Positions 2 to 18,565 of a DNA stretch of 18,934 bases are shown piece by piece. The stretch covers positions 1 to 18,934 of the forward strand of contig JAYZBQ010000024.1 of assembly GCA_036338695.1 (NCBI GenBank). Reading direction: 5' to 3'. Source of the DNA: Myxococcota bacterium. GTDB lineage: Bacteria > Myxococcota > UBA4151. Numbering within the stretch: the stretch's first letter is position 1; each line of letters starts with the position of its first letter. The translations under genes were made by a program, and so were the position numbers. The notes under the pieces were generated by a model, which worked only from the letters and a program-made list of their open reading frames with translations, was not told where the DNA came from and made no database searches.

Positions 2-286
2 GATTGGCTTGGTCTGACGCGACCGATCAATGTGGAACCTCTGCCAGGCATTGCGCCGACACCCAGGCACGTCGCCCGTGTGCTGCACACGATGAAGACC
101 CAAAAAATAAGGAACATCCTACAGGAGCGCCACTACCCCACACGTACGAGCGACACGCTGGCACGTCTTGCCAAGGCGCAGGTCGTCGTGATCCCTGGCG
201 GCGCTAACTTTGCTGACCAGAATGAGACGTACACCGCTCGAATCAAGCGAACGGCGGAGGTGATTTATGATGCGCTCAATCGCTAG
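2..286 (+). CDS. Metal (Zn/Mn) ABC transporter substrate-binding protein, ZnuA/TroA family, C-terminal part (5' truncated by window edge)
   Basis: Frame is open from base 2 (DWLGLTRPINVEPLPGIAPTPRHVARVLHTMK...). EPxPGIxPTPxH resembles the EPKPGIPPSPxHL segment of cluster A-I binding proteins. Lies upstream of a ZnuC/ZnuB-like pair. Stop TAG 284-286. Confidence 0.8.
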   Translation, partial: DWLGLTRPINVEPLPGIAPTPRHVARVLHTMKTQKIRNILQERHYPTRTSDTLARLAKAQVVVIPGGANFADQNETYTARIKRTAEVIYDALNR

Positions 287-1091
287 ATCTCTTGGCTTTG
301 GAGGCGCCCTCTTCTGCATCGCAGGATGCCTGGGCGACGGCTTACCTTGGGGTGAGCTCAACGCGTCTGTCACGGCAAGCTTCGCTCCGTCACCCGGACG
401 ATTGGACGCTCAAGGGCGGCTCAAAACCGCGGGGAACTACGTGGTCGCGCTCGAGGACGTGGCGGTAGGTTTCGACGCCTTATCCGTCGTCTTGGCTGCG
501 CAAGGCGCCGCCGGTTTTGACCCCGCTAATCCGCCCGAGGGCTATTCATTATGCCATAACGGACACTGCCACTCCGACAGCGGCGCGCTCGTCGACTACG
601 AAGACATTGCGCTCGAGATGGCAGGTGGTTCAGGCGGTGCGCGCGTCGTCGTCGGTTTGGATACCCAGCCGCAAACTTTATCCGCAGTCGCGAGCCCAGT
701 GGCGCCGACGCCCTGCGAGCCCAGCCCGTGCGAGGTACCCCTCGGCGAGCTCGCCGGTATCGAGCTCAACATCAGCTCAGTGCGCCTGCGCGGGACCGTC
801 TTTGATACGTTGCTAGGCGATGCACGCCGACTCCCTGAAGAAGGCTATGCGGTCGACCTGGATCTCCCCCTCACGACCGCGCTGACAGCTGAGATCCAAG
901 GCAGTATCGGCCCGGGGGCGCCGGTGGGACTCAACCTAGCGGTCGACTTCCAGCTCCCGGCTGCGCTACTCGATGACATCGATTTTGGCGTCGCCCCACC
1001 AGCCGACGAGGGTGCATGGAAGCAGGCGCTCAACGAAGCGCTCGTCGACCACGCTACGCTCAACACAACCATCAACCGTTCGAACGACTGA
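267..1091 (+). CDS. Hypothetical lipoprotein with Cys/His motif (GYSLCHNGHCHSD), probable metal-binding accessory protein
   Basis: 274 aa. Basic N-terminus, hydrophobic stretch and IAG|C lipobox. CHNGHCH at nt 552-572. Start overlaps the end of the binding-protein gene, implying an operon. Confidence 0.7.
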   Translation: MMRSIARSLGFGGALFCIAGCLGDGLPWGELNASVTASFAPSPGRLDAQGRLKTAGNYVVALEDVAVGFDALSVVLAAQGAAGFDPANPPEGYSLCHNGHCHSDSGALVDYEDIALEMAGGSGGARVVVGLDTQPQTLSAVASPVAPTPCEPSPCEVPLGELAGIELNISSVRLRGTVFDTLLGDARRLPEEGYAVDLDLPLTTALTAEIQGSIGPGAPVGLNLAVDFQLPAALLDDIDFGVAPPADEGAWKQALNEALVDHATLNTTINRSND

Positions 1092-1130
1092 TTTCAGTCA
1101 AAACAACATCTCATAACAAGGAGTTAACCG

Positions 1131-1631
1131 ATGAGATTTCAAGCCCTGCTAGGTACCCTAGTTCTCTTTACTGCGACCGCTTTGTCGGGTTGTGGCGATC
1201 ACGAAGAGCATCACAGCCCCGCCGAGGAAGCCTGTGAGCACACCAAAGAAGGTCCTTTCCAAGACGTCACGGCGACGGCTGCAGCCGACGGCGCGCCCTC
1301 GGCGACGTTTGAGCACACCGCCGTGCGGATCACGCTCGTCGCTGACGCTGATGACAACACGCAGAACGTTGGCTATGTGACCTATCAAGCAGACGAAGCC
1401 GCCGAGTTCGCGTTCTTCCTCTCGGTGGATATCCCGATGGAGATCACGGATGCAAACGGCGCTGCGGTTGAGATCGAAGAAAGCGCCGACGTCGCTGAAT
1501 GCGGCGAAGTCGCCAAGCAACACAACGCGGACCTGGAAGTCGGCACCTACACGCTGAAGATCGGTCCGACCACGGAGACGACCGTCAGCCTGGTGGTGGA
1601 AGAGGCAAGTCACGAAGGTGAAGACCACTGA
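1131..1631 (+). CDS. Hypothetical His-rich acidic lipoprotein, probable metal-binding accessory protein
   Basis: 166 aa. AAGGAG RBS at 1118-1123. Signal peptide with LSG|C lipobox, followed by GDHEEHHSPAEEACEH. C-terminus SHEGEDH. Confidence 0.8.
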   Translation: MRFQALLGTLVLFTATALSGCGDHEEHHSPAEEACEHTKEGPFQDVTATAAADGAPSATFEHTAVRITLVADADDNTQNVGYVTYQADEAAEFAFFLSVDIPMEITDANGAAVEIEESADVAECGEVAKQHNADLEVGTYTLKIGPTTETTVSLVVEEASHEGEDH

Positions 1632-2361
1632 GTCGAACGCTGAGCTGACCCCGCGGCTGGTCTGCAGTGACCTGCAGATTGGCCGTGCGGGTCAGCCGCT
1701 TTTGCCCCCGGTCAATTTGGCTGTTCATCCCGGTGAAGTCTGGGTCCTGGTCGGTCGAAATGGCTCGGGAAAAAGCACGCTCCTGCACACACTTCTCGGG
1801 AGCCTGAAACCGGTCGGCGGAAACTACACCCTTCAGCGTGGTTGCCGGCTCGGTCACGTACCACAGCGCGAGAGCCACGACCTCTGCGTACCGGCGCGTG
1901 GCGTCGATATGGTAGAGTCTGGTGCCGATCGATCTTGGGGTTTTTGGCGCTGGGGGGGTCGCGCCGATAAGGTCGACGCAGCGCTCACAGCGGTCGGAGC
2001 CCATGACGTTGCGCGTGAGCCCTTTAGTCATCTCAGCGAAGGGCAGAAGCAGCGTATCTTGATGGCGCGGGCGCTGGTAAGTGACCCGGACGTGCTCGTG
2101 CTTGATGAGCCGACCAGCGCCATGGATCCGCTCGCCGAGCAAACCATCTATGAGCTGATCAGCCAGCTTCAGACCGAGCGCTCGCTCGCTGTCATCATTG
2201 CGAGCCACTCGCTGGCGGTGCTTCCTGCGATCGCCACCCATATCGTGTACCTCGACCGTGACGATCAGATAGTGCTGTCAGGCGCTCGTGAATACGTGCT
2301 GAGCAGCGCACCCTTTCGGGCTCGCTATGGCGAGATCCTACCCCACTCGGCGGATGCGTGA
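1618..2361 (+). CDS. Metal ABC transporter ATP-binding protein (ZnuC-like)
   Basis: Walker A GRNGSGKST, Q-loop HVPQ, signature LSEGQKQR, Walker B/D-loop VLVLDEPTSAMD, H-loop ASH. GTG start overlaps the upstream gene, so the exact start is uncertain. Confidence 0.92.
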   Translation: MKTTESNAELTPRLVCSDLQIGRAGQPLLPPVNLAVHPGEVWVLVGRNGSGKSTLLHTLLGSLKPVGGNYTLQRGCRLGHVPQRESHDLCVPARGVDMVESGADRSWGFWRWGGRADKVDAALTAVGAHDVAREPFSHLSEGQKQRILMARALVSDPDVLVLDEPTSAMDPLAEQTIYELISQLQTERSLAVIIASHSLAVLPAIATHIVYLDRDDQIVLSGAREYVLSSAPFRARYGEILPHSADA

Positions 2362-3200
2362 TGGACGCAGCGCCCACACTGGCTGAGTTCGTTGCTGCGT
2401 GGGATCTGTTTCGTGCGCCGGCGCTGACAGGCGCCCTGGCGGGCATGATGCTGGGCTGTCTTGGTGTCTACGTCGTGCTGCGCCGGATGGTCTTTCTAGC
2501 GGCGACGGTCTCACAAGCAGCCTCCTTCGGCGTCGCGCTCGCCTACCTGGCGGGTCTAAGTGCGCTCGGCACGCTGGCGCCCACGCTCGGCGCGCTCGTC
2601 CTCACTTTTATCACCCTCTATGTGATCGCCTCCGATACCAGCCACGAGCAGCATCGCCGGGATGCGCTGTTGGGCTTTATGTTTCTCGCAAGTGCGGCGG
2701 GAACGCTGGTCGTCGGCACCCGCATCGTCGAGGAGATTCAAGACATTGAGAGCGTCCTTTTTGGTACGGCGGTCGCGGTCCTACCCAACGACTTTCGGCT
2801 GATGATCGGGCTCGCATGCTCGATCATCGCCATCCAGCTGTGGGGATGGCGCGGGTTCAGCGCGGTCTCATTTGACCGCGTCGGTGCGCGGGTCAGACAG
2901 CTCCCGGTCAAAGGGCTGGAGCTCACGCTGTTTGTCTGCCTCGGCGTGGCGCTGGCGGTGTCGACCCGAGTGCTCGGTGCGCTCCCAACCTTTGCGTTCA
3001 CGGTGTTGCCGGCGCTCGCTGCGATCAACGTGGCGCCCAATCTGCGCTGGAGCCTGCTCGTCGCCGCGCTCCTCGGCTCGATCAGCGGTTTTGGCGGTTA
3101 CCTCTTCGCCTTCCTCTTTGAGTTTCCTGTGGGCGCCACGCAGACACTCCTTGCGGCGTCGCTGACCAGCGTGTCGTACCTGTTCGCCCACCGCCACTGA
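2358..3200 (+). CDS. Metal ABC transporter permease (ZnuB/ABC-3 family)
   Basis: Multi-pass hydrophobic protein with GCLGVYVVLRRM, ESVLFG and FDRVGARV segments typical of ABC-3 permeases. GTG 2358 / ATG 2361 overlap the ATPase TGA (translational coupling). Confidence 0.9.
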   Translation: MMDAAPTLAEFVAAWDLFRAPALTGALAGMMLGCLGVYVVLRRMVFLAATVSQAASFGVALAYLAGLSALGTLAPTLGALVLTFITLYVIASDTSHEQHRRDALLGFMFLASAAGTLVVGTRIVEEIQDIESVLFGTAVAVLPNDFRLMIGLACSIIAIQLWGWRGFSAVSFDRVGARVRQLPVKGLELTLFVCLGVALAVSTRVLGALPTFAFTVLPALAAINVAPNLRWSLLVAALLGSISGFGGYLFAFLFEFPVGATQTLLAASLTSVSYLFAHRH

Positions 3201-3240: not shown

Positions 3241-4251
<1,011 letters not shown>

Positions 4252-4415
4252 CTTCTCCGCTCCATCCGCTTTACGCCGCGTGGCAGACGACCACGCACAC
4301 TCGCTCTAACCCATTCTGTTGCACCCTGCACGGCCTCGCCAGCTCTCGGCGCCGAGGGTACTCGCCGGCGCGCTCGAAAACCGTTAGGAGCAGCCATCCG
4401 AGCGGGAGCACCCCT

Positions 4416-5039
4416 TTGAGCAAGCCTACCCCCCCACACATCGCTCGCGCCCTGTCGGCGTTGGCTGCTCAAGACGAGCGGCTTGCGGCGTTAATCGAAG
4501 AGCACGGGGCCTTCACCCCCCGCCGCGCCGACCCACCCGATGCCTTTGCGGCGCTCGCGCGGGCGATCATCTTCCAACAGCTCGCCGGAAAGGCTGCGGC
4601 GTCGATTCACCGACGCTTCTGCGCGCTGGTCGACGGTCAGGTCAGGCCTGCTCGAGTCGGACAACTTTCACCTGATCAGCTGCGCAGCGCGGGGCTGTCT
4701 GCGAGCAAGGCGCGCGCCGTAGCGGAGTTGGTCCAGTGTGCGCAGGGCGGTGCGCTCGAGCTCTCCACGCTCGATACACTCGGCGATGAGGCGCTCACCA
4801 AGCACTTGTGCCAAGTGCGCGGCGTGGGGCCGTGGACTGCGCAGATGTTCATGCTCTTTGAGCTGGGTCGGCTGGACGTTTGGCCTACAGGCGACCTCGC
4901 TGTACGGCGCGGGTTTTCTTCCATCTACGGGCTCGAGCCAGCCGTCACCGCTCGCCAACTCGAGCCGCTCGGTGACCCGTTTCGCCCCTACCGCTCGATC
5001 GTCGCATGGTATTGCTGGCGTGTCATGGACACACCCTGA
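4416..5039 (+). CDS. DNA-3-methyladenine glycosylase II family protein (AlkA-like, HhH-GPD)
   Basis: AIIFQQL, helix-hairpin-helix VRGVGPWTAQMF, WPTGDLAVRRG with catalytic Asp, PYRS. TTG start with GGGAG upstream. Confidence 0.9.
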   Translation: MSKPTPPHIARALSALAAQDERLAALIEEHGAFTPRRADPPDAFAALARAIIFQQLAGKAAASIHRRFCALVDGQVRPARVGQLSPDQLRSAGLSASKARAVAELVQCAQGGALELSTLDTLGDEALTKHLCQVRGVGPWTAQMFMLFELGRLDVWPTGDLAVRRGFSSIYGLEPAVTARQLEPLGDPFRPYRSIVAWYCWRVMDTP

Positions 5040-5048
5040 CCACCCCGA

Positions 5049-5609
5049 TCATCGCAGCGCCTGGCGCCGCTGCCAGACCGAGCGCCGCAGCCGCCAGAGC
5101 TCTTGCTCGGTCAGCTTGGGGTCGACGTAGCGCCCCGGACCAACGCCTAAAAACTCCGCGCCGGTCTTCTCTTTGACGCGCCGCGACCCAAGGTTTCCGG
5201 CGGCGTTTGCGAAGATTAACTCCTCAAACCCGAGCGCTTCGAAAGCGTGGGCGTTCACAGCCTCGCACGCTTCCGTCATGAGCCCTTGTCCCCAAAACCT
5301 GCGCCCCAGCCAAAACCCGCGATGCTCTGGCTGACCGTCCCGCCATAAGTCGATAGCACCGATGCAGGCTTCAGGCGCCGCCTTACTCCGGAGCGCCCAC
5401 ACCCACCGGTCCTGCCCTTGGACGGGGATGACCACCTCGCTCAAAAAGGACTCAACGCCGCCTGGTGGGTACGGCCACGGGACGTCTGCTGAGAGGTAAC
5501 GAATGACCTCATAGTCAACGAAGTGCTCGGCGTAGCCCGCAGCGTCATCCAAGCTGATGGGCACCAGCAGTAAGCGCGCTGTCTCCAAGGTGGGGACCGG
5601 ATTCACCAT
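5049..5609 (-). CDS. GNAT N-acetyltransferase, RimJ/RimL type
   Basis: PTLETARLLL, GFWLGRRFWGQGLMTEA (acetyl-CoA motif A), NLGSRRVKEKTG. ATG 5609 chosen over the track's 5621 because GGAG precedes it. Confidence 0.88.
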   Translation of the reverse strand: MVNPVPTLETARLLLVPISLDDAAGYAEHFVDYEVIRYLSADVPWPYPPGGVESFLSEVVIPVQGQDRWVWALRSKAAPEACIGAIDLWRDGQPEHRGFWLGRRFWGQGLMTEACEAVNAHAFEALGFEELIFANAAGNLGSRRVKEKTGAEFLGVGPGRYVDPKLTEQELWRLRRSVWQRRQALR

Positions 5610-5669
5610 CGCTCGCTCCAAAGCGCTTACCCCCTTATCGGCAGCCCGCCCCCCTGAGTTGCCGGCTGA

Positions 5670-6581
5670 TCAGGCGGGGACATCCCGCCCGAGTGACTCG
5701 ACGGCGTGCTCGATGAAGCTCTGCACTCGAGGCGAGAGGTGCCGGCTCTCCGGCCACACCATGCTCACCGAGCCAACCTGCTGAGACCACTCCGGCAGCA
5801 CGCGCACCAGCGCGCCGGCGCGCACGTACCGCTCGACCTCAATGCTCGAGACCAAGGCAATGCCTGCGCCGCTCAGGGCAAACTGAGTCTGGGCTGCGGT
5901 GTCATCGACGACCCAGCGTGGATCCTCAAAAGGAGGCCGCTCGTGCGAACGCCCGGACCGATGGTGCCACTCGATGACTCGGCGATCGACGATGGCATGA
6001 GCGACCAGTCGGTGCCCCGCCAGGTCGTCCAGCTGAGCGGGAGCTCCGCACTCGACCAGATACTGGGGGCTGGCATAGAGTCCACGCTCAAAGCGCATCA
6101 GCCGGCGCGCCCGCAAGCTTGGGTCGCCCGACAGCGGCCCGATGTGGAGCCGAAGCGCCACATCAAAGCCGTCCTCTACCAACGAGATGAGCCGGTTCGA
6201 GACCTCAAGCTCGACACGAGTCTGCGGGAACCTGAGCGCGTAGTCGCGCAGACACCGCACAAGCCGCTCGCTTTGACCAAAACTGGGCGTCGTCGTGACC
6301 CGCAGCACGCCGCTGGGTTCATCGTCCGGTGCAGAGAACCCTTCGATCGTCATCTCGAGCCGATCCAGCAAGGGCTTGGTGCGATGGAGCAAGTCCAAGC
6401 CGGCTTCAGACAACTTGATCGAGCGCGCGGTGCGACGAAAGAGCTCGACCCCGAGCTCGTCCTCCAGGCGCTGAATACGGCGACTGATCGTGGATTTCGG
6501 GACATCGAGACGCCGAGCCGCCTCCGTCATCGTCCCGTGCGTCGCCACGACCGTGAAGGTGGTGAGATCAGGGATGTTCAT
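5670..6581 (-). CDS. LysR-family transcriptional regulator (CrgA/DmlR-like)
   Basis: N-terminal HTH (GTMTEAARRLDVPKSTISRRIQRLEDELGVELFRRTARSIKLSEAG), SLVEDGFDVALR, C-terminal SPRVQSFIE. ATG 6581 has GGAG upstream. Divergent from the YceI operon. Confidence 0.95.
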   Translation of the reverse strand: MNIPDLTTFTVVATHGTMTEAARRLDVPKSTISRRIQRLEDELGVELFRRTARSIKLSEAGLDLLHRTKPLLDRLEMTIEGFSAPDDEPSGVLRVTTTPSFGQSERLVRCLRDYALRFPQTRVELEVSNRLISLVEDGFDVALRLHIGPLSGDPSLRARRLMRFERGLYASPQYLVECGAPAQLDDLAGHRLVAHAIVDRRVIEWHHRSGRSHERPPFEDPRWVVDDTAAQTQFALSGAGIALVSSIEVERYVRAGALVRVLPEWSQQVGSVSMVWPESRHLSPRVQSFIEHAVESLGRDVPA

Positions 6582-6598
6582 TGCAGGCAGCTCCAATC

Positions 6599-6654
6599 GT
6601 CTCAAAAACGCAACTCAAGCGTCCAAATTTAGCTCGTTGTACAGCTAACGCAAC
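6599..6654. promoter_or_regulatory. Putative LysR binding sites in the divergent promoter
   Basis: Two T-N11-A boxes (T6600/A6612 and T6640/A6652). They share the 8-mer AACGCAAC (6607-6614, 6647-6654) exactly 40 bp apart. The second lies in the dyad GTTG-N11-CAAC (6636-6654). Confidence 0.55.
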
Positions 6655-6689
6655 CTGATACCTTTCGACTATCAACTAGGAGACACCCC

Positions 6690-7235
6690 ATGAATCGAGC
6701 ACGTATCACCCTTCTCATGATCGCCGGGTTGGCGGCACCCGCTCAAGCCGCCGAGATCGACACGGCGCAGTCGTCGATTACTTGGACCGGCAGCAAGGTG
6801 ACCGGCGATAGCCACACAGGCGTCGTCCCGGTCAAGTCTTCCAAGCTCAAGGTGAAGGGCGGTCAAGTGGTGGGCGGCGGCGTGGTCATGGACATGGCCA
6901 AGTTTACGGTCACCGACCTCAAGGGCAAGTGGGCGGATAAGTTCATCGGGCACATGCACAGCAAGGACTTCTTTAACACCAAGCAGTTCCCGACGGCGTC
7001 CCTCACGATCAAATCCATCACGAACGGGACGCTCCAGGGCACGCTCACCATCATGGGCACCGCCCAACCGATCAGCTTTCCTGTCAAACGCGACGGCGCC
7101 TTCTACGTGGGTAAAGCGAGCTTTGACCGCACCAAGTATGGCATCAAGTACGGCTCGGGGTCTTTCTTCAAGGGGCTCGGGAACCGGATGATCAACGATC
7201 AAGTCGACGTCGCCTTCCGAATCGCCGTCAAGTAG
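6690..7235 (+). CDS. YceI-family periplasmic lipid/polyisoprenoid-binding protein
   Basis: Signal peptide (AQA|A), IDTAQSSITWTGSK, HMHSKDFFNTKQFPTA, GTLTIMG, FDRTKYGIKYGS. AGGAG RBS. Confidence 0.93.
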   Translation: MNRARITLLMIAGLAAPAQAAEIDTAQSSITWTGSKVTGDSHTGVVPVKSSKLKVKGGQVVGGGVVMDMAKFTVTDLKGKWADKFIGHMHSKDFFNTKQFPTASLTIKSITNGTLQGTLTIMGTAQPISFPVKRDGAFYVGKASFDRTKYGIKYGSGSFFKGLGNRMINDQVDVAFRIAVK

Positions 7236-7241
7236 CGGCCG

Positions 7242-7958
7242 ATGACCACTGCGACGGGGCGATCACCTCAGCGCAGCGTGCGTCGCTCCGCCGATCGTGG
7301 GCGGGGCGAGCACGGCTGGCTGTCCTCTCGCCACAGCTTCAGCTTCGCGAACTATTACGACCCCGACCACATGGGGTTTGGTCACCTTCGGGTGATCAAC
7401 GAAGATCATGTGCGACCAGGTGCCGGGTTTGGTCGACACGGACACCGTGACATGGAGATCATCACGTTTGTGGTGACCGGTGAGCTCGCTCACCAAGACA
7501 GCACCGGCGAGCGCGGGACCCTGCGCTATGGTGACATCCAGGTTATGAGCGCCGGGCGCGGCATCGAGCACAGCGAGTTCAACGCCAGCGCAGAAGAGCC
7601 CGTTCAGTTCATCCAGATCTGGGTCGAGCCCGCCCAGCGGGGCGGCGAACCGAGCTACCAGCAGCGGTTCATCGAGCCGTCCAACGGGCTCTCATTGCTG
7701 GTCAGCCCCGACGGCGCCGACGGCAGCCTGACCATTCGCCAGGACGCCAGCATCTACCGCGGCGTCCTCGACGCCGAGCAGGCGCTCACCGTCGACCTGC
7801 TGCGCCCGAGGACCTACCTGCACCTGGTCCGCGGCGAGCTGAGCGCGCTGGACGTTGCCCTCAAAGCCGGCGATGCTTTAGCGCTGACGCACCACCCCCA
7901 CCTTAAGCTATTCGCCACCGAACCCGCCGAGTTTCTCCTCTTCGACCTCGCTGAATAA
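7242..7958 (+). CDS. Pirin-family protein (YhhW-like bicupin)
   Basis: HGWLSSRHSFSFANYYDP, LRVINED, GFGRHGHRDMEIIT, MSAGRGIEHSE. The three His and one Glu iron ligands are present. Confidence 0.95.
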   Translation: MTTATGRSPQRSVRRSADRGRGEHGWLSSRHSFSFANYYDPDHMGFGHLRVINEDHVRPGAGFGRHGHRDMEIITFVVTGELAHQDSTGERGTLRYGDIQVMSAGRGIEHSEFNASAEEPVQFIQIWVEPAQRGGEPSYQQRFIEPSNGLSLLVSPDGADGSLTIRQDASIYRGVLDAEQALTVDLLRPRTYLHLVRGELSALDVALKAGDALALTHHPHLKLFATEPAEFLLFDLAE

Positions 7959-7967
7959 GGATCCCCG

Positions 7968-8507
7968 ATGACCACACAACGCACCCTCCTCGCCTTCGCC
8001 GGCTCCTTTCGCTCTGGGAGCCTGTCGCACGCGCTGCTCAAGGGGTACGACGGCGCGCTGCCGCCGACATGGACCCTCAAGCTGTGCGATTACCGCAACG
8101 TCCCCTTGTACAATGGCGACATCGACGGTGGACCCGCCGTGGAGGCGGTCAAAACGGCGATCACGGAGGCGGACGCGCTGGTGTTTAGCGCGCCGGAATA
8201 CAACTACTCGATCCCCGGCGTGCTCAAAAACATGATCGATTGGGCGAGTCGCCCGGCTTACAAATCGCCGCTCGCAGGGCATCGAGCCGGGCTGATGACG
8301 CTCTCAGGCGGTGTCTCGGGCGGTGCGCGTGCTCAGCAGCACCTCAAAACGATCCTCTTGGGTACCGCGACGGCCATCTACACCGCCCCCGAGATGCTGA
8401 TCCCGAACGCAGCCAGCGCCTTCGAGGGGGGCGTGCTCACGGACGAGAAGGTGCGCGCCCAGGTCGAGCGCTACCTGTGCGGGCTGTGCGAGTGGGCTGA
8501 GCGCTAA
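7968..8507 (+). CDS. NAD(P)H-dependent FMN reductase (ChrR/YieF-like)
   Basis: GSFRSGSLS FMN-phosphate loop, PEYNYSIPGVLKNMIDWASR, SGGARAQQHL. Confidence 0.93.
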   Translation: MTTQRTLLAFAGSFRSGSLSHALLKGYDGALPPTWTLKLCDYRNVPLYNGDIDGGPAVEAVKTAITEADALVFSAPEYNYSIPGVLKNMIDWASRPAYKSPLAGHRAGLMTLSGGVSGGARAQQHLKTILLGTATAIYTAPEMLIPNAASAFEGGVLTDEKVRAQVERYLCGLCEWAER

Positions 8508-8510
8508 GAC

Positions 8511-8538
8511 CGGCGCCGGCTTGGGCGACGAGCCGCCG
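8511..8538. terminator. GC-rich hairpin between convergent genes, possible bidirectional terminator
   Basis: CGGCTTG-ggcga-CGAGCCG stem (one G-U pair), extendable by CGG/CCG, in the 33-bp gap between the FMN reductase and pdxH stops. No U-tract. Confidence 0.3.
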
Positions 8539-8540
8539 AC

Positions 8541-9143
8541 TTAGGGCTGCAGCCGCCACTGCATCCAACCTGCCTCAACCGGCTTGAGGATCCACCGGTC
8601 GTGAATACGGCCTGGCCGGTCTTGCCAAAACTCCCAAGCGCTCGCCTCGAGGTGAAACCCTGACCAATGCGGCGGGCGAGGCACCACGCCCTCAAAACGA
8701 GCCGAGGCGTCCTCGACAGCAGCCTCGAGCGCCTGCCGCGACGCGACCGGGCGGCTCTGGTCCGAAGCCCACGCGCCAAGGTTCGAGAGCCGGCTCCGGC
8801 TGGCGAAGTAGGCGTCAGCCTCCGCGTCCGAGAGGCGCTCTACGACCCCCTCGACGCGCACTTGGCGCTTGAGGATCGACCAGTAGAACGCCACCGAGAC
8901 ACGCCGGTCGCGTGCCAGCTCGTGACCTTTATCCGACTCAAGGTTTGTAAAGAAGCGCAGACCGGTTGGGCTGACCCCCTTGCACAGGACAAAGCGCGTC
9001 CGGGGTGCGCCGTCCAAGCCTAAGGTGGAGAGCGCCATGGCGGTGTGGTTATGCTCACCGGAAGCCTGAGCCTCCTCCAGCCATCGCTCGAGCCAGCTCG
9101 AGGGGTGTTCAGCAGCCAACTCAGCAAACTCAGGGATCGACAT
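8541..9143 (-). CDS. pdxH: Pyridoxine/pyridoxamine 5'-phosphate oxidase
   Basis: AMALST, RFVLCKG, FFTNLESDKG, RQVRVEG, YFASR, GAWASDQS, PRPPHWSGF, EFWQDRPGRIHDR, C-terminal RLQP. ATG 9143 preferred (GGAG upstream); alternative 9188. Confidence 0.95.
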   Translation of the reverse strand: MSIPEFAELAAEHPSSWLERWLEEAQASGEHNHTAMALSTLGLDGAPRTRFVLCKGVSPTGLRFFTNLESDKGHELARDRRVSVAFYWSILKRQVRVEGVVERLSDAEADAYFASRSRLSNLGAWASDQSRPVASRQALEAAVEDASARFEGVVPRPPHWSGFHLEASAWEFWQDRPGRIHDRWILKPVEAGWMQWRLQP

Positions 9144-9283
9144 GGGTTTTACGCTCCAGAGCCTCAGCGTCTCGACGCCGCCATCCATTCCGACCGAAGC
9201 CTGGCTCGTGTCAACCGCAAGGAATGGTGACCGTCAGCGCCCTTCCCCTTGTCACGCGTGAATCGACCGACTAGACGCGGCGC

Positions 9284-9856
9284 ATGAAGGCGCTGCTGAG
9301 CAAGACATCAGACGCTTGGGTCGAGGCCGTACTCGGCGACTTTAACGCCTTCTTGCTCGACCACGCCGCATGCGAGCGCAAGGCGTCTGCGATGGCGATG
9401 ACCTTTATCGTGCGCTACCCGGACCGCGACGCCATCCATGAGCCCATGATCCGCCTCGCCAAGGAGGAGCTCTCCCACTTTCACGAGGTCTTTCGCCTCA
9501 TCAAGAAGCGAGGCTTGCGGTTCCGCAAGGACTCCAAAGATAGTTATGTCAACGGTCTGCTCCGGCATGTGCGGCAAGGACGGGACATCGAGTTTCTGGA
9601 TCGGTTGGTGATGGCGGGTGTCGTTGAGGCGCGCGGGCACGAGCGCTTCGATCGCTTGGCGCAGGCGCTGCCGCCCGGCGAGCTTCACGACTTTTATCAC
9701 GCGATCGCTCAATCGGAAGCGCGTCATGCGCACCTCTTCCCCGACCTCGCTAAGCTCTACTTCGATGAGGTCACCGTCGCTGCCCGCTGGGATGATTTTC
9801 TAAGCTATGAAGCCGAGTTGATCGCGCAGCTCCCCGCGCAGCCCGCGCTGCACTGA
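9284..9856 (+). CDS. miaE: tRNA-(ms2io6A37) hydroxylase, ferritin-like di-iron enzyme
   Basis: LLDHAACERKAS, LAKEELSHF, DRLVMAGVVEARGHERF, SEARH, terminal ALH give the di-iron ligand pattern of MiaE. Confidence 0.92.
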   Translation: MKALLSKTSDAWVEAVLGDFNAFLLDHAACERKASAMAMTFIVRYPDRDAIHEPMIRLAKEELSHFHEVFRLIKKRGLRFRKDSKDSYVNGLLRHVRQGRDIEFLDRLVMAGVVEARGHERFDRLAQALPPGELHDFYHAIAQSEARHAHLFPDLAKLYFDEVTVAARWDDFLSYEAELIAQLPAQPALH

Positions 9857-9858
9857 TC

Positions 9859-11091
9859 TTGGCGCGCGCCCTCTCCAAGTACCTCGCTGGGCACGCCGAG
9901 GAGGAGGCTAAGCTCCGGCCCCGGCTGGCGCGCCGCTACCGCTTCGTCGTCTGCATCCCGGCTTGTGACGAGGAGGACACGCTGCTCGAGACGCTGCGCA
10001 ACCTCGCATCGACCGAACAAGCTCAAAACGCGCTGGCGATCGTCGTGCTCAACGCCAGCGCCGGCGCGCCCGAGCGCGTCCACGCCGCCAACGCTCGGTG
10101 CGCGCAGGCGCTTCGGTCCGCAGCGCAACTCGGCAGCTCGTGCAGAGCGCTGGGCTCGCTGAGCGGCCTCGATCTCCTGCTGATCGACCGCGCCGAGCCG
10201 GGGCGCACGCTGCCGCCAAAGCAAGGCGTCGGCTTGGCCAGAAAGATCGGCGCCGACGTGGCGCTCGCGTGGATCGCAGATGGCAGCGTCGAGACGCCGC
10301 TCATTTGGTCAACGGACGCCGACGTCGTCGTCCCGCCCGATTACTTTACGCGCCCCCTCCACGCATCGCTCGACGCCTCCGCCTTTGTGTTCCCCTTCAC
10401 CCACCGCCTCGAGGGGGACGCGTCGCAGCGCGCAGCGATGCGCTCGTACGATCAGTACCTGCGCTACTACCTCGACGGGCTTCGACGCGCCGGCTCGCCC
10501 TATGCCTTCCACACCATCGGCAGCACCCTCTGCATCGGCGCGACCGCCTATGCGCAGGTGCGCGGCTTTCCAAAGCGTCAAGCCGGTGAGGACTTCTATC
10601 TGCTCAACAAGCTCGCCAAGGTCGGCTCCATCGTCACGCTCACCGGTCAGCCGATCGAGCTGTCCGGGCGGACCTCGGACCGTGTCCCCTTTGGAACAGG
10701 CGCTGCCGTCCGGCAGATCCAGGCTCAGCGCGCACAAGGCTCAGCGTACACGGTCGAGAACCCCCTCGTCTTTGACGCCCTAGGCGCTTGGCTTGAGCTG
10801 CTCGACCATGCCGCTCACGAAGACGCCTTTGAGGCGCTCGAAGACCGACTCGAAGCGCTCGAGGCGCCCTATGCGCAGCCGCTTCGACGAGCGCTCGGCG
10901 CCGCAGGTCATCTCGCAGCTGCGCGCGCTGCCTTTGAGCAATGCCACGGCACCGTGCTGCGTAAGCGCCTCCATGACTGGAACGACGCCTTCCGAACGCT
11001 CAAGCTCATCCATCAGCTACGCGACGAGGGGCTCGACGAGGTCCCGGCTGACGAGGTCTTCGCTCCCGATCACTCGATCCCAACCGGGTGA
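9859..11091 (+). CDS. Glycosyltransferase family 2-like (GT-A fold) protein of unknown substrate
   Basis: VVCIPACDEE (IPxxNE-like), GVGLARKIGAD, DxD motif STDAD, GFPKRQAGEDFY. TTG start 2 nt after the miaE stop. Confidence 0.75.
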   Translation: MARALSKYLAGHAEEEAKLRPRLARRYRFVVCIPACDEEDTLLETLRNLASTEQAQNALAIVVLNASAGAPERVHAANARCAQALRSAAQLGSSCRALGSLSGLDLLLIDRAEPGRTLPPKQGVGLARKIGADVALAWIADGSVETPLIWSTDADVVVPPDYFTRPLHASLDASAFVFPFTHRLEGDASQRAAMRSYDQYLRYYLDGLRRAGSPYAFHTIGSTLCIGATAYAQVRGFPKRQAGEDFYLLNKLAKVGSIVTLTGQPIELSGRTSDRVPFGTGAAVRQIQAQRAQGSAYTVENPLVFDALGAWLELLDHAAHEDAFEALEDRLEALEAPYAQPLRRALGAAGHLAAARAAFEQCHGTVLRKRLHDWNDAFRTLKLIHQLRDEGLDEVPADEVFAPDHSIPTG

Positions 11092-11216
11092 AATCCGACG
11101 CGTGGTGGCTCCGTTGAACGGTTTGGTCGATGCAGACTTGCATCCGCACCGTGATCGACTTAGCAGGACGGACCCTTTGAACGACCGTTCTCTCACCATA
11201 TTGCTGGGGCTATGCG

Positions 11217-13988
11217 TTGACTCTCTACACTGACTATCTTGAGCAAATCGAAACCCGAAAAGCGAACGGTTTGCACCCGAAACCGATCGAAGACGCTGCG
11301 CTCGTTGAGGTTCTGATCGAGCAGATCATCGATCAAGGACACGAGCACCGCGCCAGCTCGCTCGACTTCTTCATCTACAACACACTCCCCGGGACGACCA
11401 GCGCCGCAGGGGTCAAGGCGAAGTTCCTAAAGAAGGTCGTGCTCGGCGAGGCGAGCGTCAGCGAGATCGGCGTCGATTTTGCGCTCGAGCTGCTCTCGCA
11501 CATGAAGGGCGGCCCTTCCGTCGAGGTGCTGTTGGACCTAGCGCTCGGCGAGGACGCAGATATCGCCGCCAAGGCAGCGGCTGTGCTCAAGACCCAAGTC
11601 TTTCTTTATGAGGCTGACACCGACCGGCTCGAAGCGGCGCACAGGGCGGGACACCCGCTCGCAACCGAGCTCCTCGAGAGCTACGCGCGTGCGGAGTTCT
11701 TCACCGAGCTGCCGCCCGTGGATGAGACCATCCAGGTGGTTACGTATGTCACCGCCATCGGCGACGTCTCCACCGACCTGCTGTCCCCCGGCAGCGACGC
11801 GCACTCGCGCTCGGACCGAGAGATGCACGGGCAGTCGCTGTTTGAGCACAACCAGGACAAGCAAAACGAGCTCCTTGAGCTCAAGCGCCAGCACCCGGAC
11901 AAGCGGGTCATGCTGGTCGCCGAAAAAGGGACCATGGGCGTCGGTTCGTCGCGTATGTCCGGGGTCAACAACGTTGCGCTCTGGACCGGCGTGCAAGCGA
12001 GCCCTTACGTGCCCTTCATCAACATCGCCCCGATCGTGGGCGGCACCAACGGGATCTCACCGATCTTTCTGACCACGGTCGGCGTCACCGGTGGGATCGG
12101 TGTTGACCTGAAGAACTGGGTCAAGAAGCTCGACGAGCGAGGTGAGCCCATCATGGACGAGGACGGCGAGCCCGTGCTCGAGCAGGTCTTCTCGATCGAC
12201 ACCGGGACCGTCCTAACGATCAACACCAAGACCAAGAAGCTCTACAACGAAGACAGCAGCAAAGAGCTGTGCGACATCGCGGCCGCGCTGACGCCGCAAA
12301 AACTTGAGTTCATCCGTGCTCAAGGCTCCTATGCGGTCGTCTTTGGCAAGAAACTTCAGAGCACCGCTGCAGCGATCCTCGGGGTCGAGATGCCGGCGGT
12401 CTACGCCACCTCCAAAGAGATCTCGCACGAGGGTCGCGGGCTCACAGCCGTCGAGAAGATTTTCAACAAGAACGCCGTCGGGACCACGCCGGGCAAGGTG
12501 TTGCACGCCGGCTCCGACGTCCGGGTCAAGGTCAACATTGTTGGCTCACAAGACACCACCGGGCTGATGACCTCTCAAGAGCTTGAGATGATGGCGGCGA
12601 CGGTGATCTCACCGACCGTGGACGGCTCGTACCAATCAGGCTGCCACACCGCCTCGGTCTGGGACCGAAAGGCGCAGCGAAACATCCCAAAACTCATGAG
12701 CTTCATGAACGACTTCGGGCTCATCACCGGGCGTGACCCCAAAGGCGAGTACCACCCGATGACCGACGTCATCCACAAGGTGCTCAACGACCTCACCGTC
12801 GACGACTGGGACGTGATCATCGGTGGCGACTCTCACACCCGCATGTCCAAAGGTGTCGCCTTCGGCGCCGACTCCGGGACGGTGGCGCTGGCGCTGGCCA
12901 CCGGCGAGGCGACGATGCCCATCCCTCAATCCGTCAAGGTGACCTTCAAAGGTACCCTCAAAGATCACATGGACTTCCGCGACGTCGTCCACGCCACGCA
13001 GGCGCAGATGCTCAAAGAGTTCGCCGGCGATAACGTGTTCCAGGGGCGGGTCATCGAGGTCCACATCGGGACGCTGCTGGCCGACCAAGCCTTCACCTTC
13101 ACCGACTGGACAGCAGAGATGAAGGCGAAAGCCTCGATCTGTATCTCCGAGAGCGACACGCTTGCGGAATCCCTTGAGATCGCCAAACGACGCATCCAGG
13201 TGATGATCGACAAGGGAATGGACAACGCCAAGGGCGTTTTGCAAGGTCTGGCGGATAAAGCCAGCGCCCGCATCGCTCAGCTTCAATCCGGCGCCAAGCC
13301 TCCGCTCACGCCCGACGCCGACGCGCATTATGCGGCGGAGTTTGTCGTCGATCTCGACCAGATCAACGAGCCGATGATCGCTGATCCGGACGTGCACAAC
13401 GAGGACGTCTCCAAGCGCTACACGCACGATACGATCCGCCCCATCTCGTTCTACGAGGGCTCCAAGGAGGTCGACCTCGGCTTTGTCGGCTCGTGCATGA
13501 TCCACAAAGGGGACATGAAGATCCTGGCGCACATGCTTCGGAACATCGAGAAGCTCCACGGGACGGTCGAATTCAAAGCGCCGCTGGTCGTGGCGCCTCC
13601 GACCTACAACATCGTCGACGAGCTCAAAGCCGAGGGTGACTGGGACGTGCTCGAGCGCTACTCCGGCTTTGTGTTTGATGACAGCAACCCGAAGAATACG
13701 GCGCGAACGAGCTACGACAACATGATGTACCTCGAGCGACCGGGCTGTAACCTGTGCATGGGCAACCAAGAGAAGGCAGCCAAAGGCGACACCGTGATGG
13801 CGACCTCCACGCGGCTGTTCCAAGGGCGCGTCGTCAAGGACGCCGAGGACAAAAAAGGGGAGTCGCTCTTAGCCTCCACACCGGTCGTGGTCCTGTCCAC
13901 GATTCTGGGGCGCACGCCAAATATCGACGAGTACATCGCAGCGGTCGACGGCATCAAGCTGACCAACTACGCGCCCCCAGCCAACTAG
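11217..13988 (+). CDS. acnB: Aconitate hydratase B (aconitase/2-methylisocitrate dehydratase)
   Basis: 923 aa. HEAT-like N-terminus, STDLLSP, GVGSSR, GSQDTTG, GGDSHTR, and [4Fe-4S] ligands in GSCM and PGCNLCMGNQ. TTG start. Confidence 0.96.
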   Translation: MTLYTDYLEQIETRKANGLHPKPIEDAALVEVLIEQIIDQGHEHRASSLDFFIYNTLPGTTSAAGVKAKFLKKVVLGEASVSEIGVDFALELLSHMKGGPSVEVLLDLALGEDADIAAKAAAVLKTQVFLYEADTDRLEAAHRAGHPLATELLESYARAEFFTELPPVDETIQVVTYVTAIGDVSTDLLSPGSDAHSRSDREMHGQSLFEHNQDKQNELLELKRQHPDKRVMLVAEKGTMGVGSSRMSGVNNVALWTGVQASPYVPFINIAPIVGGTNGISPIFLTTVGVTGGIGVDLKNWVKKLDERGEPIMDEDGEPVLEQVFSIDTGTVLTINTKTKKLYNEDSSKELCDIAAALTPQKLEFIRAQGSYAVVFGKKLQSTAAAILGVEMPAVYATSKEISHEGRGLTAVEKIFNKNAVGTTPGKVLHAGSDVRVKVNIVGSQDTTGLMTSQELEMMAATVISPTVDGSYQSGCHTASVWDRKAQRNIPKLMSFMNDFGLITGRDPKGEYHPMTDVIHKVLNDLTVDDWDVIIGGDSHTRMSKGVAFGADSGTVALALATGEATMPIPQSVKVTFKGTLKDHMDFRDVVHATQAQMLKEFAGDNVFQGRVIEVHIGTLLADQAFTFTDWTAEMKAKASICISESDTLAESLEIAKRRIQVMIDKGMDNAKGVLQGLADKASARIAQLQSGAKPPLTPDADAHYAAEFVVDLDQINEPMIADPDVHNEDVSKRYTHDTIRPISFYEGSKEVDLGFVGSCMIHKGDMKILAHMLRNIEKLHGTVEFKAPLVVAPPTYNIVDELKAEGDWDVLERYSGFVFDDSNPKNTARTSYDNMMYLERPGCNLCMGNQEKAAKGDTVMATSTRLFQGRVVKDAEDKKGESLLASTPVVVLSTILGRTPNIDEYIAAVDGIKLTNYAPPAN

Positions 13989-14081
13989 TCTCGCAGGCTA
14001 AAAAATCAGGGCCTGGTCTTGAGCGCGAGGCGCTGCTCCACCACACTCCGAGCGATCGCTTAGGTCGTAAGGAGTGACACC

Positions 14082-14963
14082 GTGCCGCTTGAGACAGCCC
14101 TCTCCAAAAAGCTGGGGCTCCGCTACCCGATCGTCTGCGCGCCCATGTTCATCATCTCCAACAAAGAGATGCTGCTGGCCTGCGCCGAGGCGGGCATCCT
14201 CGGAGCGATGCCGTCGCTCAACGCTCGGACCATCGAGGGTCTGCGCAGCGACCTTGAGTGGCTGCGCGCTCGGACGGACAAGCCCTTCGCCATCAACATG
14301 ACCATCGGCCTGACCGACCCAGAGCGTCTTCAGCAAGACGTCGCCCTGTGTGAAGAGTTCGAGGTCCCTGTCTGGATCACGAGCTACGGGAACCCGACCG
14401 AGTTTGTGCGGCGCGCCAAGGCCTGCGGATCGACCGTGTTCCATGACGTCGTTAACCTCAAGCACGCTCTCAAGGCACAGTCCGCTGGGGTTGACGCCAT
14501 CATCGGGGTCGCCGCCGGCGCAGGGGGGCATGCGGGGAAGATCAGCCCCTATGCCCTCTATCCGTACCTGACGGATCAGCTCGACGTCCCGGTCATCGCC
14601 GCCGGCTGCATCAGCACCGGTCGCCAGATCGTCGCTTCGCTCGCGCTGGGTGCCGAGCTGGTGTACATGGGCACCCGCTTCATCGCGAGCGAGGAGTGCG
14701 GAGCGCCCCAAGCGTACAAGGACAAGGTGGTTGCCTGCGGTCCGGAAGATATCGTCTACACGGACAAGGTCAGCGGCGTGAACGCCAACTTCATCGCCGA
14801 CACTCTGCCCGATCCAGGGGCTGATGGGGATGGCGCCAAGCGCTGGAAAGATATCTGGTCTGCCGGTCACGGTGTGGCCGACGTCAAGGCTGTGCGCTCC
14901 ATCGAGCAGATCGTCGACGAGCTCGTCCGTGAATACCACGACGCCGTGCAGGCGCTGAGCTAA
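14082..14963 (+). CDS. Nitronate monooxygenase family (NMO/FabK-like) FMN enzyme
   Basis: PIVCAPMF, AGAGGHAG, PVIAAGCI, YMGTRFIASEEC, DIWSAGHGV. AAGGAG RBS before the GTG. Confidence 0.9.
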   Translation: MPLETALSKKLGLRYPIVCAPMFIISNKEMLLACAEAGILGAMPSLNARTIEGLRSDLEWLRARTDKPFAINMTIGLTDPERLQQDVALCEEFEVPVWITSYGNPTEFVRRAKACGSTVFHDVVNLKHALKAQSAGVDAIIGVAAGAGGHAGKISPYALYPYLTDQLDVPVIAAGCISTGRQIVASLALGAELVYMGTRFIASEECGAPQAYKDKVVACGPEDIVYTDKVSGVNANFIADTLPDPGADGDGAKRWKDIWSAGHGVADVKAVRSIEQIVDELVREYHDAVQALS

Positions 14964-14995
14964 ACCGACACCGGCCCGCTCAGCTCGTCCGCGGC

Positions 14996-15898
14996 TCAGG
15001 CGTCAGCTTGATCTAGGGCGCGCGCGATGATCGCTTCTGTCTCGAGCCACAAGCGCTCCGCCAACTCATCATCGAGCGCCTTGGGGTGGATCGGGTCCAC
15101 CACCTTATTATCCGAGAAGTAGGCGCCGCTGACCTGCGCTAAGCCAGGATGCGTGGCGACGAGGCACTGCGTCGATGCACCTTGTGGCGTGGTCTTCATG
15201 AACGCCTTAAGCCGCTCATACATCGCCTCTTTGTTTGGAACGTGCCGCCCTAGGTTGGTGTCGATCACACCCGGGTGGACCGAATTGGCGGTCCTCGACG
15301 AGCCCTCGAAACGGCGCGCCAGCGAGCGCGCAAACAATAGATTAGCGAGCTTACTCTGCCCGTAGGCTGTCCAGGGGTGGTACCCTTGGGTGGCTGCGAG
15401 GTCGTCCAGCTCGATACCCGACTCTGGCGCCATCCGGTGGGCACCGCTCGAGAGCATCACGACCCGCCCGTCCTCGGCCAGCGACTCGAGGAGACCCGTG
15501 ACCAGCCGAAAGTGACCAACATGGTTGACGAAGAACTGCTCCTCGATACCATGGATCTGCTGGTGATCTTGCAGCGCCATGACGCCTGCGTTGGCGATGA
15601 TGCCGTCGATCGAGCCCAGCGCTCGAACCGTCGCCACGGCGGCGTCGACGCTCGCCAGATCACCGAGTTCGCAAGCGACCGCCTGTGCGCCCAGCCCGAG
15701 CGCGTCGAGCGCCTCGATCGCCTTCTCTTGGGTGCGTGCAAGCCCGATGATCTGAGCGCCTCGCAGCGCCAGGACGCGGCAGGTCTCGTGCCCGAGGCCG
15801 GAGTTACAGCCCGTGACGACAAAACACTTACCCGACAGGTCGATGCCAGACGTCACCGCTTCCGCTGTATCTTGAGCTCCAAAGGACAGTTCGGACAT
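14996..15898 (-). CDS. Short-chain dehydrogenase/reductase (retinol dehydrogenase/WWOX-like)
   Basis: TGCNSGLG, ANAGVM, NHVGHF, YGQSKLAN, SVHPGVI. True start probably ATG 15898 (MSELSFGAQDTAEAV); the track's 61-aa extension looks non-coding. Confidence 0.92.
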   Translation of the reverse strand: MSELSFGAQDTAEAVTSGIDLSGKCFVVTGCNSGLGHETCRVLALRGAQIIGLARTQEKAIEALDALGLGAQAVACELGDLASVDAAVATVRALGSIDGIIANAGVMALQDHQQIHGIEEQFFVNHVGHFRLVTGLLESLAEDGRVVMLSSGAHRMAPESGIELDDLAATQGYHPWTAYGQSKLANLLFARSLARRFEGSSRTANSVHPGVIDTNLGRHVPNKEAMYERLKAFMKTTPQGASTQCLVATHPGLAQVSGAYFSDNKVVDPIHPKALDDELAERLWLETEAIIARALDQADA

Positions 15899-16138
15899 GA
15901 GCTTACCCTGATGATCGACAGCCCGATGATGGACCGACCGTGAGCGCTGATCAAGTGCGCAACCGATCCGATTCCGGGTCGCCATCACAACCGGCTGACG
16001 CTCATCATCAAGCCTGCAATCAACGTATTCTCCTGCGAACGCCTTGCGAAGTTGCACAGCGCTCTTGTAATCAAATATCAAACTCAGCGGTGCAGCTTGG
16101 AACAGTTCAACCCGGTTTGTGACGCACAGGAGCCTGTC

Positions 16139-17089
16139 TTGCAGCTACACCTCAATCCCTCGCTTCCCACGATGATCCTCGGCATGGCTTGTATCGGATG
16201 TCAGGTCCCGCAGGCTGACACGTCGGGCTCACAAAGCCTCGCCGACACCGGCGCTCCACCACAGCGACCCGATGCTGAATACGGCTTATCAGAGCAACGT
16301 TTGAGCGTTGACGGAGAGCCGCGTGACTATGAGCTCTACGTCCCCGAAAGCTACAGCCACGACCAAGCGGCACCTGTCGTCCTGAACTTTCATGGAGGAG
16401 GAGGAAGCGCGCGTAGCCAGCGCGCCGTGTCCGACATGCGTTCACTGGCGGAGACCCATAATTTTCTGTTGGTCTACCCCGAAGGCACTCTTCTCGAGAA
16501 CGGATCGACGCACTGGAACCCATTACCACCAGGTGCTGAAGGAAAGAGTGACGCCAACGACTTTGGGTTCATCGCGGCGCTCATCGACGAGCTCTCAAGC
16601 CGCTATCAGATCGATCCTCTGCGTGTCTATGCGACCGGCTACTCGAATGGTGCGGGCATGGCTTACGGGCTCGCCTGCTATCTCAGTGATCGCATCGCGG
16701 CGATCGCTCCTGTCTCAGGTTCAATGTACGCTCAGATGCAAACGGACTGCCCCGCAAGCCATCCGACAGGGGTTGCGATCTTTAACGGGACCCAAGACGC
16801 TCAGCGCCCGTACGACGGCTTTCCGGGTTGGTTTCTCTCCGTCGATGACGCCGCCACATTCTGGGCATCGCATAACCAAACCGCCGCATCGCCGCAGATC
16901 GACGAGTTGAGAGACTCGGGCCGCGTGATCGAACGCACGCGTTACGGCAGCGACGGCGAGGCACAAGTCGTCAAACACAAAGTGATGGGTGGCGGTCATG
17001 AGTGGTTCGACCTCAACCTTGACGGCGCCAACCTTGACGAGACGATCTGGTCGTTCTTTGCGCAGCATGATCGCGATGGAGGCCGCTAG
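16139..17089 (+). CDS. PHB depolymerase/LpqC-family esterase, probable lipoprotein
   Basis: NFHGGGG oxyanion region, GYSNG nucleophile elbow, NGTQD Asp, GGGHEW His. In-frame TTG 16139 follows AGGAG; CIG|C lipobox-like motif. Confidence 0.85.
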   Translation: MQLHLNPSLPTMILGMACIGCQVPQADTSGSQSLADTGAPPQRPDAEYGLSEQRLSVDGEPRDYELYVPESYSHDQAAPVVLNFHGGGGSARSQRAVSDMRSLAETHNFLLVYPEGTLLENGSTHWNPLPPGAEGKSDANDFGFIAALIDELSSRYQIDPLRVYATGYSNGAGMAYGLACYLSDRIAAIAPVSGSMYAQMQTDCPASHPTGVAIFNGTQDAQRPYDGFPGWFLSVDDAATFWASHNQTAASPQIDELRDSGRVIERTRYGSDGEAQVVKHKVMGGGHEWFDLNLDGANLDETIWSFFAQHDRDGGR

Positions 17090-17112
17090 GCGGGGATGAT
17101 GACGGCGCCTAG
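17086..17112 (+). terminator. Inverted repeat overlapping the esterase stop codon
   Basis: CTAGGCG (17086-17092) / CGCCTAG (17106-17112) form a perfect 7-bp stem with a 13-nt loop. No U-tract. Confidence 0.3.
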
Positions 17113-17277
17113 TATGCCCTAGCACGGGTTCGAAATGGTATCGCTCTGGCGAACCAGTAACCACTAGCTGACGAGCCTTTGCTCACGTGGTCGACGTGGC
17201 ACTCAGCGAGCCATACCACCTTGCCCCCCTTGGTGGGCGAACTTACAAGAGCGTGTACTCAACGCATTCGGTGGTTC

Positions 17278-17694: not shown

Positions 17695-17780
17695 CGCTAA
17701 AAATTCGCGCCTGGCTCGAGCCACTTTGAGTTCCGCTCGACGGGGCTCTGATTCGGTACCTAGTCACATCGCACGAGGCA

Positions 17781-18089: not shown

Positions 18090-18182
18090 GAGCCTACAGA
18101 GAAGTGACGCTCTTGGCGTGCGCAAATTCGCTAGCCTCGATAAGCCGACGAGCGGCAAAACAGCCACGCAAAGGAGTAGAAT

Positions 18183-18515: not shown

Positions 18516-18565
18516 ATCGATTACCCTGCCGGAATGCATCCAGCGCAGGATTGTTCCACAGGTTC

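Follow-up and report, generated by a model that had tools for sequence, protein, structure and literature searches.

A predicted divalent-metal importer operon of Myxococcota with an outer-membrane barrel and two accessory lipoproteins

What do two lipoproteins of no described family contribute to an operon that encodes a metal ABC importer? The question is raised by positions 2 to 3200 of an 18,934-nucleotide stretch of DNA from a Myxococcota bacterium (GCA_036338695.1, contig JAYZBQ010000024.1). This stretch, hereafter the window, is the complete contig C24 of a 3.36 Mb genome. The first-pass annotation had described five + strand open reading frames (ORFs) whose junctions overlap except for a single 39-bp gap, namely a binding protein, lipoprotein A (A), lipoprotein B (B), an ATPase and a permease, and had placed them in a metal ABC importer. 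Both the layout and the importer context (Pfam ZnuA, ABC_tran and ABC-3) were borne out, and the operon very probably encodes a divalent-metal importer. Our preferred reading, to which we give a probability of roughly 0.5, is a zinc importer with a plugless outer-membrane barrel, a lipoprotein (A) that would capture metal at the barrel side and a His-rich lipoprotein (B) that would act as a buffer.

Gene order and the outer-membrane barrel

The window begins with the 3' end of the substrate-binding protein (SBP) gene (2..286, + strand; cluster A-I, ZnuA/AdcAII type, Pfam ZnuA E 2.3e-6 for this fragment). It is followed on the same strand by A (267..1091; 274 aa, lipobox Cys21), a 39-bp spacer carrying the ribosome-binding sequence AAGGAG (1092..1130), B (1131..1631; 166 aa), an ABC ATPase (1618..2361; Pfam ABC_tran) and an ABC-3 permease (2358..3200; Pfam ABC-3), and every junction apart from the A-B spacer overlaps. 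The 5' edge of the window is a contig end inside the SBP gene, and the first genes of the operon therefore lie beyond the window. The binding-protein gene is of ZnuA type; only its 3' end is in the window, and its 5' part is found on contig C93 of the same genome (locus L001, 2-808, - strand; Pfam ZnuA E 4.7e-47 for this copy). The start of C93 and window positions 2-182 share a 181-bp overlap at 91.7% identity, and the mismatch is probably a strain variant, since both alleles are present in the contigs of the sequencing run. Besides the remaining SBP, C93 carries a gene for a 433-aa outer-membrane-barrel-like protein and, on the opposite strand, a Fur-family gene. Behind the latter stands a divergent operon (L001 2767-5871, + strand) encoding a MerC-family protein that contains a long His-rich insertion, a COG0523 GTPase, a DUF6702 protein and a HupE/UreJ protein. 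Two elements suspected upstream of the operon, an outer-membrane gene and a Zur/Fur box, accordingly have counterparts on C93, the second as the Fur-family gene and a palindrome described below.

Homologs of the window carry Myxococcota as their database label; for A they number 197 in a word-indexed search and about 700 clusters at 50% identity. Locus tallies refer to the best 80 of 172 A-carrying loci, which were found with the pattern CHNGHCH; the neighbour tallies count marker genes only. SBP was present in 78 of the 80 loci, the barrel in 76, B in 71 and the ATPase and the permease in 66 each, confirming the anticipated synteny with metal ABC genes. Among the 47 loci with long flanks the numbers rise to 47 (barrel), 46 (SBP) and 44 (B). 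Because the full order barrel-SBP-A-B-ATPase-permease recurs in 35 of the 80 loci, the arrangement is not chance. B follows A in 58 of the 80, and in Myxococcaceae it is found on the opposite strand at a distance of about 5-8 kb.

Gene order also bears on how the lipoproteins may work. The order barrel-SBP-A is found in 63 of the 76 barrel-containing loci and A overlaps the SBP stop in the present operon; together with the co-induction of the two genes in M. xanthus (see below), this would suit periplasmic chaperones that load the SBP directly, like ZinT or AztD. In the other 13, rearranged loci, however, A has the barrel as its neighbour in 12 and the SBP in none, and no ZinT, ZrgA or AztD-type model gave a significant match, so that we regard direct loading as quite improbable. 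Work of A at the barrel, as read from gene order, has in our estimate slightly less than an even chance. The first-pass annotation had proposed a metal-uptake system with its own chaperone relay: the uptake context stands, and the relay is conjectural. By gene order A goes with the barrel and not with the SBP. Both lipoproteins can be missing, as B is absent from 18 of 20 barrel loci chosen for having no A next to the barrel.

ZinT, AztD and ZrgA have accessory roles in zinc uptake and resemble A and B as additional His-rich exported proteins that accompany a zinc ABC system. A and B differ in having no significant hidden Markov model (HMM) match to them in libraries that we take to contain ZinT and AztD models, in being lipid-anchored predicted sandwiches and, for A, in tracking the barrel. 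None of the three was among the matches listed in the fold searches with A or B, which may miss unlisted families.

In a search of 301 Myxococcota genomes, A was matched in 96 (in 8 only weakly or in part), B in 102 and the barrel in 216. The A matches are not independent, since 76 come from one family, and one unpublished genome (G184) is counted in these tallies. Twenty barrel loci picked for having no adjacent A carry the SBP in 20 cases, the permease in 18 and B in two. Because such loci keep the SBP and the permease, mostly without B, the core of the system is the barrel with the ABC genes, and A and B are dispensable accessories. The operon also occurs in two records labelled Ca. Sericytochromatia and in one metagenome-assembled genome labelled Klebsiella pneumoniae (L066, L081, L082).

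The barrel is labelled 'zinc-regulated TonB-dependent outer membrane receptor' in databases. We rejected a TonB receptor as its identity: with 433 aa it does not fit the size of typical TonB-dependent receptors, and a plug is missing. The C93 protein has no Plug match and matches no Pfam family at E 0.01, and the weak matches of its family are to porin-type BBP2 (25 of 62) and the TonB barrel (5 of 62). This automatic label, at odds with size and plug, is thus carried by a family present in most of the Myxococcota genomes searched. The barrel would share outer-membrane zinc entry with the zinc TonB-dependent receptors ZnuD and Caulobacter ZnuK/L, from which its length and the lack of Plug set it apart. 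Its family carries invariant His residues (H120, H191, H193, H428 and H431), and metal may pass this plugless, His-bearing barrel, probably without TonB. To our knowledge, high-affinity zinc passage over the outer membrane without a TonB receptor is poorly covered.

The transporter genes and their likely cargo

SBP ligands H57, H136, H202 and E251 (numbered in the C93 copy; the fourth, Glu, is included in the window fragment) align with those of 3cx3/7lm7, i.e. an AdcAII-type His3-Glu set, and the positions are conserved in 76-78 of 79 sequences. The best SBP matches are of Zn type with His as third ligand, and the matches include Mn/Fe proteins too. A PF01297 SBP, an ABC ATPase and a PF00950 permease stand in one operon, the SBP exceeding its cut-off only as the C93 copy; judged by these features the system belongs to cluster A-I and works like ZnuABC with accessories. 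It shares with ZnuABC, AdcABC and AztABC the ZnuA-family His3-Glu SBP, the ABC ATPase, the ABC-3 permease and Fur-family control, and differs from them by the added barrel and two lipoproteins, by a permease that lacks Asp36/His40 and by an ATPase that lacks CxxxHxCC. The ATPase is AztA/ZnuC-like and under the equivalog cut-offs, as are the NCBIfam scores for ZnuB/C and AztA/B/C (bits/cut-off: ZnuC 112/306, ZnuB 58/284, AztA 155/220, AztB 96/280; AztC also below). On the features tested, the system would be neither ZnuBC proper nor ZinT, AztD or ZrgA, nor MbnP or a TonB receptor.

The permease carries Ala49-x3-Gln53 (2502-2516) at the equivalents of ZnuB Asp36/His40. In an alignment of 67 permeases the Asp36 site is Ala in 64, Gly in one and a gap in two, and the His40 site is Gln in 61, His in four and a gap in two. 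Gln is likewise seen in 20 of another 21 permeases linked to the barrel, with one row unaligned, and in four of these permeases Asp stands one position earlier. The divergent motif noticed at first is therefore real. It had been taken to strengthen the case for the lipoproteins, and a variant specific to lipoprotein-bearing operons was rejected: the whole barrel-linked family has the motif, with or without lipoproteins, so that it lends the lipoproteins no specific support. An E. coli ZnuB Asp36/His40 double mutant is described, in the part of PMC12236471 consulted, as impaired in zinc uptake and failing in low zinc; the natural variant tests the ZnuB/PsaC transport model. The His3-Glu SBP would hand metal to the permease through other residues, possibly E126/H128/D129, among which the periplasmic E126 and D129 are conserved.

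A further pointer to the cargo comes from a de novo motif search against shuffles in 63 upstream regions (900 bases). The motif TGCAA-N5-TTGCA was found in 11 of the 63, compared with 0.03 in shuffles, and corresponds in sequence to the core of ATGCAACnnnGTTGCAT, the Zur box predicted for Desulfovibrio (PMC545781, in the part consulted). Because of the His3-Glu ligands of the SBP and this predicted Zur box in relatives, zinc is the likeliest cargo, and a preference of the importer for zinc appears reasonably probable.

Lipoproteins A and B

Neither lipoprotein gave a significant match in Pfam or NCBIfam, whether A was searched by itself or, in Pfam, as 50 alignment members; for B only ZrgA appeared, in one of 21 members at E 0.034. 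Profiles of A, B and the barrel found nothing under E 0.1 in sequence searches of the PDB. This agrees with the initial view that both match no characterised family and are rich in metal ligands, as conserved His and Cys are present in each. Metal binding by both lipoproteins is likely. All 50 aligned A and all 21 aligned B sequences have the lipobox Cys21. The system thus adds two lipoprotein families without a Pfam entry and a small mobile His/Cys module, described next.

The structure model of A (pLDDT 90) is only suggestive of an MbnP/DUF4382-like beta-sandwich. Its alignment with MbnP (7l6g; Z 7.0, 165 aligned, rmsd 4.1) is the longest among the top matches and stays under Z 8, in a range common for unrelated sandwiches. 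Comparison with Atlas DUF4382 and MbnP clusters gave TM 0.45-0.55, and Foldseek returned nothing at E 0.001. A shares this predicted fold with MbnP/DUF4382 lipoproteins and differs from them by its CHxGHCH insert and the missing WxW. The WxW kynurenine motif, an MbnP feature according to the consulted part of PMC11951088, is present in none of 81 A sequences, and PF20243 and PF14321 were not matched.

The most conserved part of A is this insert rather than the scaffold. It is a module of about 38 aa (516..629, + strand) with the pattern FDPxxPPxGY-x-x-CHxGHCH, and hairpin residues 96-102 lie at 552-572. Since the 80 loci were found by CHNGHCH, its invariance among them is circular; conservation was thus judged from the 50-sequence alignment and an HMM search without word index, in which 105 of 106 new matches retain CHxxHCH. 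In the structure model the insert forms a hairpin, with strands at 93-97 and 100-103. Strand alternation, rather than coordinates, places two paired Cys on one face and three His on the other, from which we infer a His3 metal site. A at the outer-membrane barrel would capture metal with the three His of this disulfide-clamped hairpin.

The insert behaves as a module. The hairpin is missing from three A homologs that adjoin barrels (L090, L091, L093), and the CHxxHCH module also occurs on FKBP-type lipoproteins, seven in fetched loci (L083-L089) and one on contig C29 of this genome (L002 5603-6364, - strand). All eight adjoin DUF3526 ABC-2 permeases, two each. The C29 lipoprotein also adjoins a COG0523 C-terminus with His-Asp repeats. 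Among 14 control genomes DUF3526 (PF12040) was matched only in Caulobacter, whose znuGHI genes encode a Zur-repressed ABC-2 system (PMC4176598, in the part consulted); the match to the znuGHI genes themselves is putative. Our searches found no literature on DUF3526.

B is predicted to be a PPC-like sandwich lipoprotein. Its model (pLDDT 86) matches PPC/collagen-binding domains (5iku: Z 11.8, 107 aligned, rmsd 2.6; Foldseek E 4e-5), and the top fold matches (Z 11.8, 11.0 and 10.7) stand well above the remainder; the Pfam PPC model has no match in B, and identity is 13%. The fold is like that of PPC and clostridial collagen-binding domains, from which B differs as a stand-alone lipoprotein with an added C-E-H helix, a conserved Cys pair and His-rich tails. 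All 72 sequences retain C35 and H37 (C-x-H) and C124, 70 of them also have H62, and mature B has a median of 7 His. We propose that B serves as a metal buffer or shuttle within the envelope. Distant B paralogs with the motif (H)ACxH form tandem arrays of four in Myxococcaceae (L116-L119, L126), and a TonB receptor adjoins such paralogs in L119 and L124. In one metatranscriptome two short contigs cover B, which does not suffice to infer its expression.

These findings also bear on a zinc system in which A chiefly helps to assemble the barrel or serves as its lid, B is a passive metal store and no hand-to-hand relay exists. It would explain why hairpin-less A homologs stay at the barrel, why the module is found on a folding enzyme, FKBP, and why B leaves the operon in Myxococcaceae and also occurs without A or barrel. 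The conservation of A is concentrated in the hairpin, however, and barrels occur without A in many genomes, so that A is not needed for barrel assembly; we judge this arrangement to be rather unlikely. In the preferred zinc reading, A and B would be optional boosters and not part of the core.

Regulation, the M. xanthus counterpart and the weighing of the zinc reading

Among the 5215 ORFs of the loci, a PKx[SG]PP terminus is found in 45, which without exception stand before the barrel (37), B (7) or the SBP (1). These leader ORFs have a signal-like segment, invariant His/Cys and the tail APKxSPP. Where B stands apart with room upstream, it has its own leader in six of six loci. The leaders resemble CruR/DUF2946, a copper-sensing arrest peptide (PMC9426467, in the part consulted), in being the first gene and in having a signal-like segment and a metal motif at a fixed distance before a Pro-Pro tail: 47 residues separate His-Cys and tail in 25 of the 45 (range 44-52), compared with 45 in CruR. 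They differ in carrying His-x-x-Cys, an upstream His and APKxSPP in place of the CXXC and RAPP of CruR, neither of which was found in the leaders. PF11162 did not reach its cut-off with the leaders, one of 16 giving a weak match (18.1 against 23.7 bits). By analogy with CruR, the leaders are candidate metal-sensing arrest peptides, and if this holds they would be the zinc-sensing counterpart of CruR. A leader is present in 38 of the 63 upstream regions, a Zur-type box in 16 and both in three; from this near-exclusivity nothing is drawn, because with a leader present the promoter falls at the margin of the 900 bases covered. No leader peptide was found at this genome's own locus, and sigma-70 promoter scans gave nothing there or at the M. 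xanthus leader regions.

M. xanthus DK1622 has the set at MXAN_2948-2953 (MXAN_2941-2953 with the B region). Mapped by order, length and cluster membership, its genes are the leaders MXAN_2953 (L056 526-951, + strand) and MXAN_2941 (L056 10179-10613, - strand), the barrel MXAN_2952, the SBP MXAN_2951, A MXAN_2950 and B MXAN_RS14250. In the published values accessible to us, in fragments per kilobase per million (FPKM), leader MXAN_2953 stands at 51-77 against 1-4 for the barrel and leader MXAN_2941 at 34-72 against 1-8 for B, i.e. roughly 10-50 times over the next gene, a pattern that fits attenuation. MXAN_2950 and MXAN_2951 rise together at 6 h of predation (log2FC 1.54 and 1.77; PMC9548883, in the part consulted), and the main text of that article does not contain the word 'zinc'. 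We found no study of this system: M. xanthus genes appear only as table entries in the literature searched, most subscription journals and supplements lying outside the search. Since all parts are present in this genetically tractable species, each claim is directly testable there.

Low metal would de-repress the operon, in this clade via the divergent Fur-family protein and a palindrome, and in many relatives via the Zur-type box or the His/Cys leader. The palindrome of this genome, TTGAGAA-N4-TTCTCAA (L001 2184-2201), lies between the barrel and the Fur gene and, with one mismatch allowed, has no second copy in the genome. Contig C92 carries two 7-1-7 sites that resemble a Fur box (about 39165 and 39222).

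A number of points weigh against the zinc reading. This clade has TGAGAA-N4-TTCTCA between barrel and Fur gene (4 of 63 regions), which is unlike the Zur box. The Fur protein encoded beside it is not assignable to Zur, as its scores are higher with PerR/Fur than with Zur models, all below cut-off. The permease has neither of the ZnuB Asp36/His40 residues, and the ZnuC zinc-sensing motif CxxxHxCC is absent from all 66 ATPases. The known relative of the predicted fold of A, matched within the range of unrelated sandwiches as noted, and that of the leaders, i.e. MbnP and CruR, both handle copper. A quick tree of the barrel, in which 24 of 56 branches are open, shows a patchy distribution of A, and barrel loci that lack A and B exist as described. 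B-only loci include two beside Fur genes and two in which distant B paralogs stand and no metal gene was found (L123, L125), the latter again an adverse observation. Finally, the junction of C93 and C24 in this genome is inferred and not assembled; it is suggested by the 91.7% overlap and by two same-family relatives (L003, L005) in which Fur (- strand), barrel, SBP, A, B and ATPase stand on a single contig.

Several of these points would suit the same architecture with another cargo, i.e. Mn, Co, Ni, Fe or Cu or a small metal chelate: the replaced Asp/His site of the permease (Gln 61/67, Ala 64/67), the copper precedents for an MbnP-like fold and a CruR-like leader, the HupE/UreJ and CobW-family neighbours in this genome and the Mn/Fe proteins among the SBP matches. 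The best SBP matches are nevertheless Zn-type with His as third ligand, the upstream box equals the predicted Zur box, WxW is missing from A in 81 of 81 and the leader has His-x-x-Cys instead of CXXC; we hold another cargo to be unlikely. Within the zinc reading, a more far-reaching version can be formulated as TonB-independent scavenging, in which a surface lipoprotein with a new portable His3 hairpin would feed a His-lined porin, a new lipoprotein family would buffer, the permease would work without the Asp/His site thought essential, and a His/Cys arrest peptide would gate the operon in M. xanthus and many relatives. In this complete form we consider it doubtful.

The rest of the window (3241-18934), assessed by eye, presumably holds ordinary genes: SDRs, an AlkA-like glycosylase, a LysR gene with YceI, pirin and FMN reductase, PdxH, a MiaE-like gene, aconitase B and the start of a photolyase.

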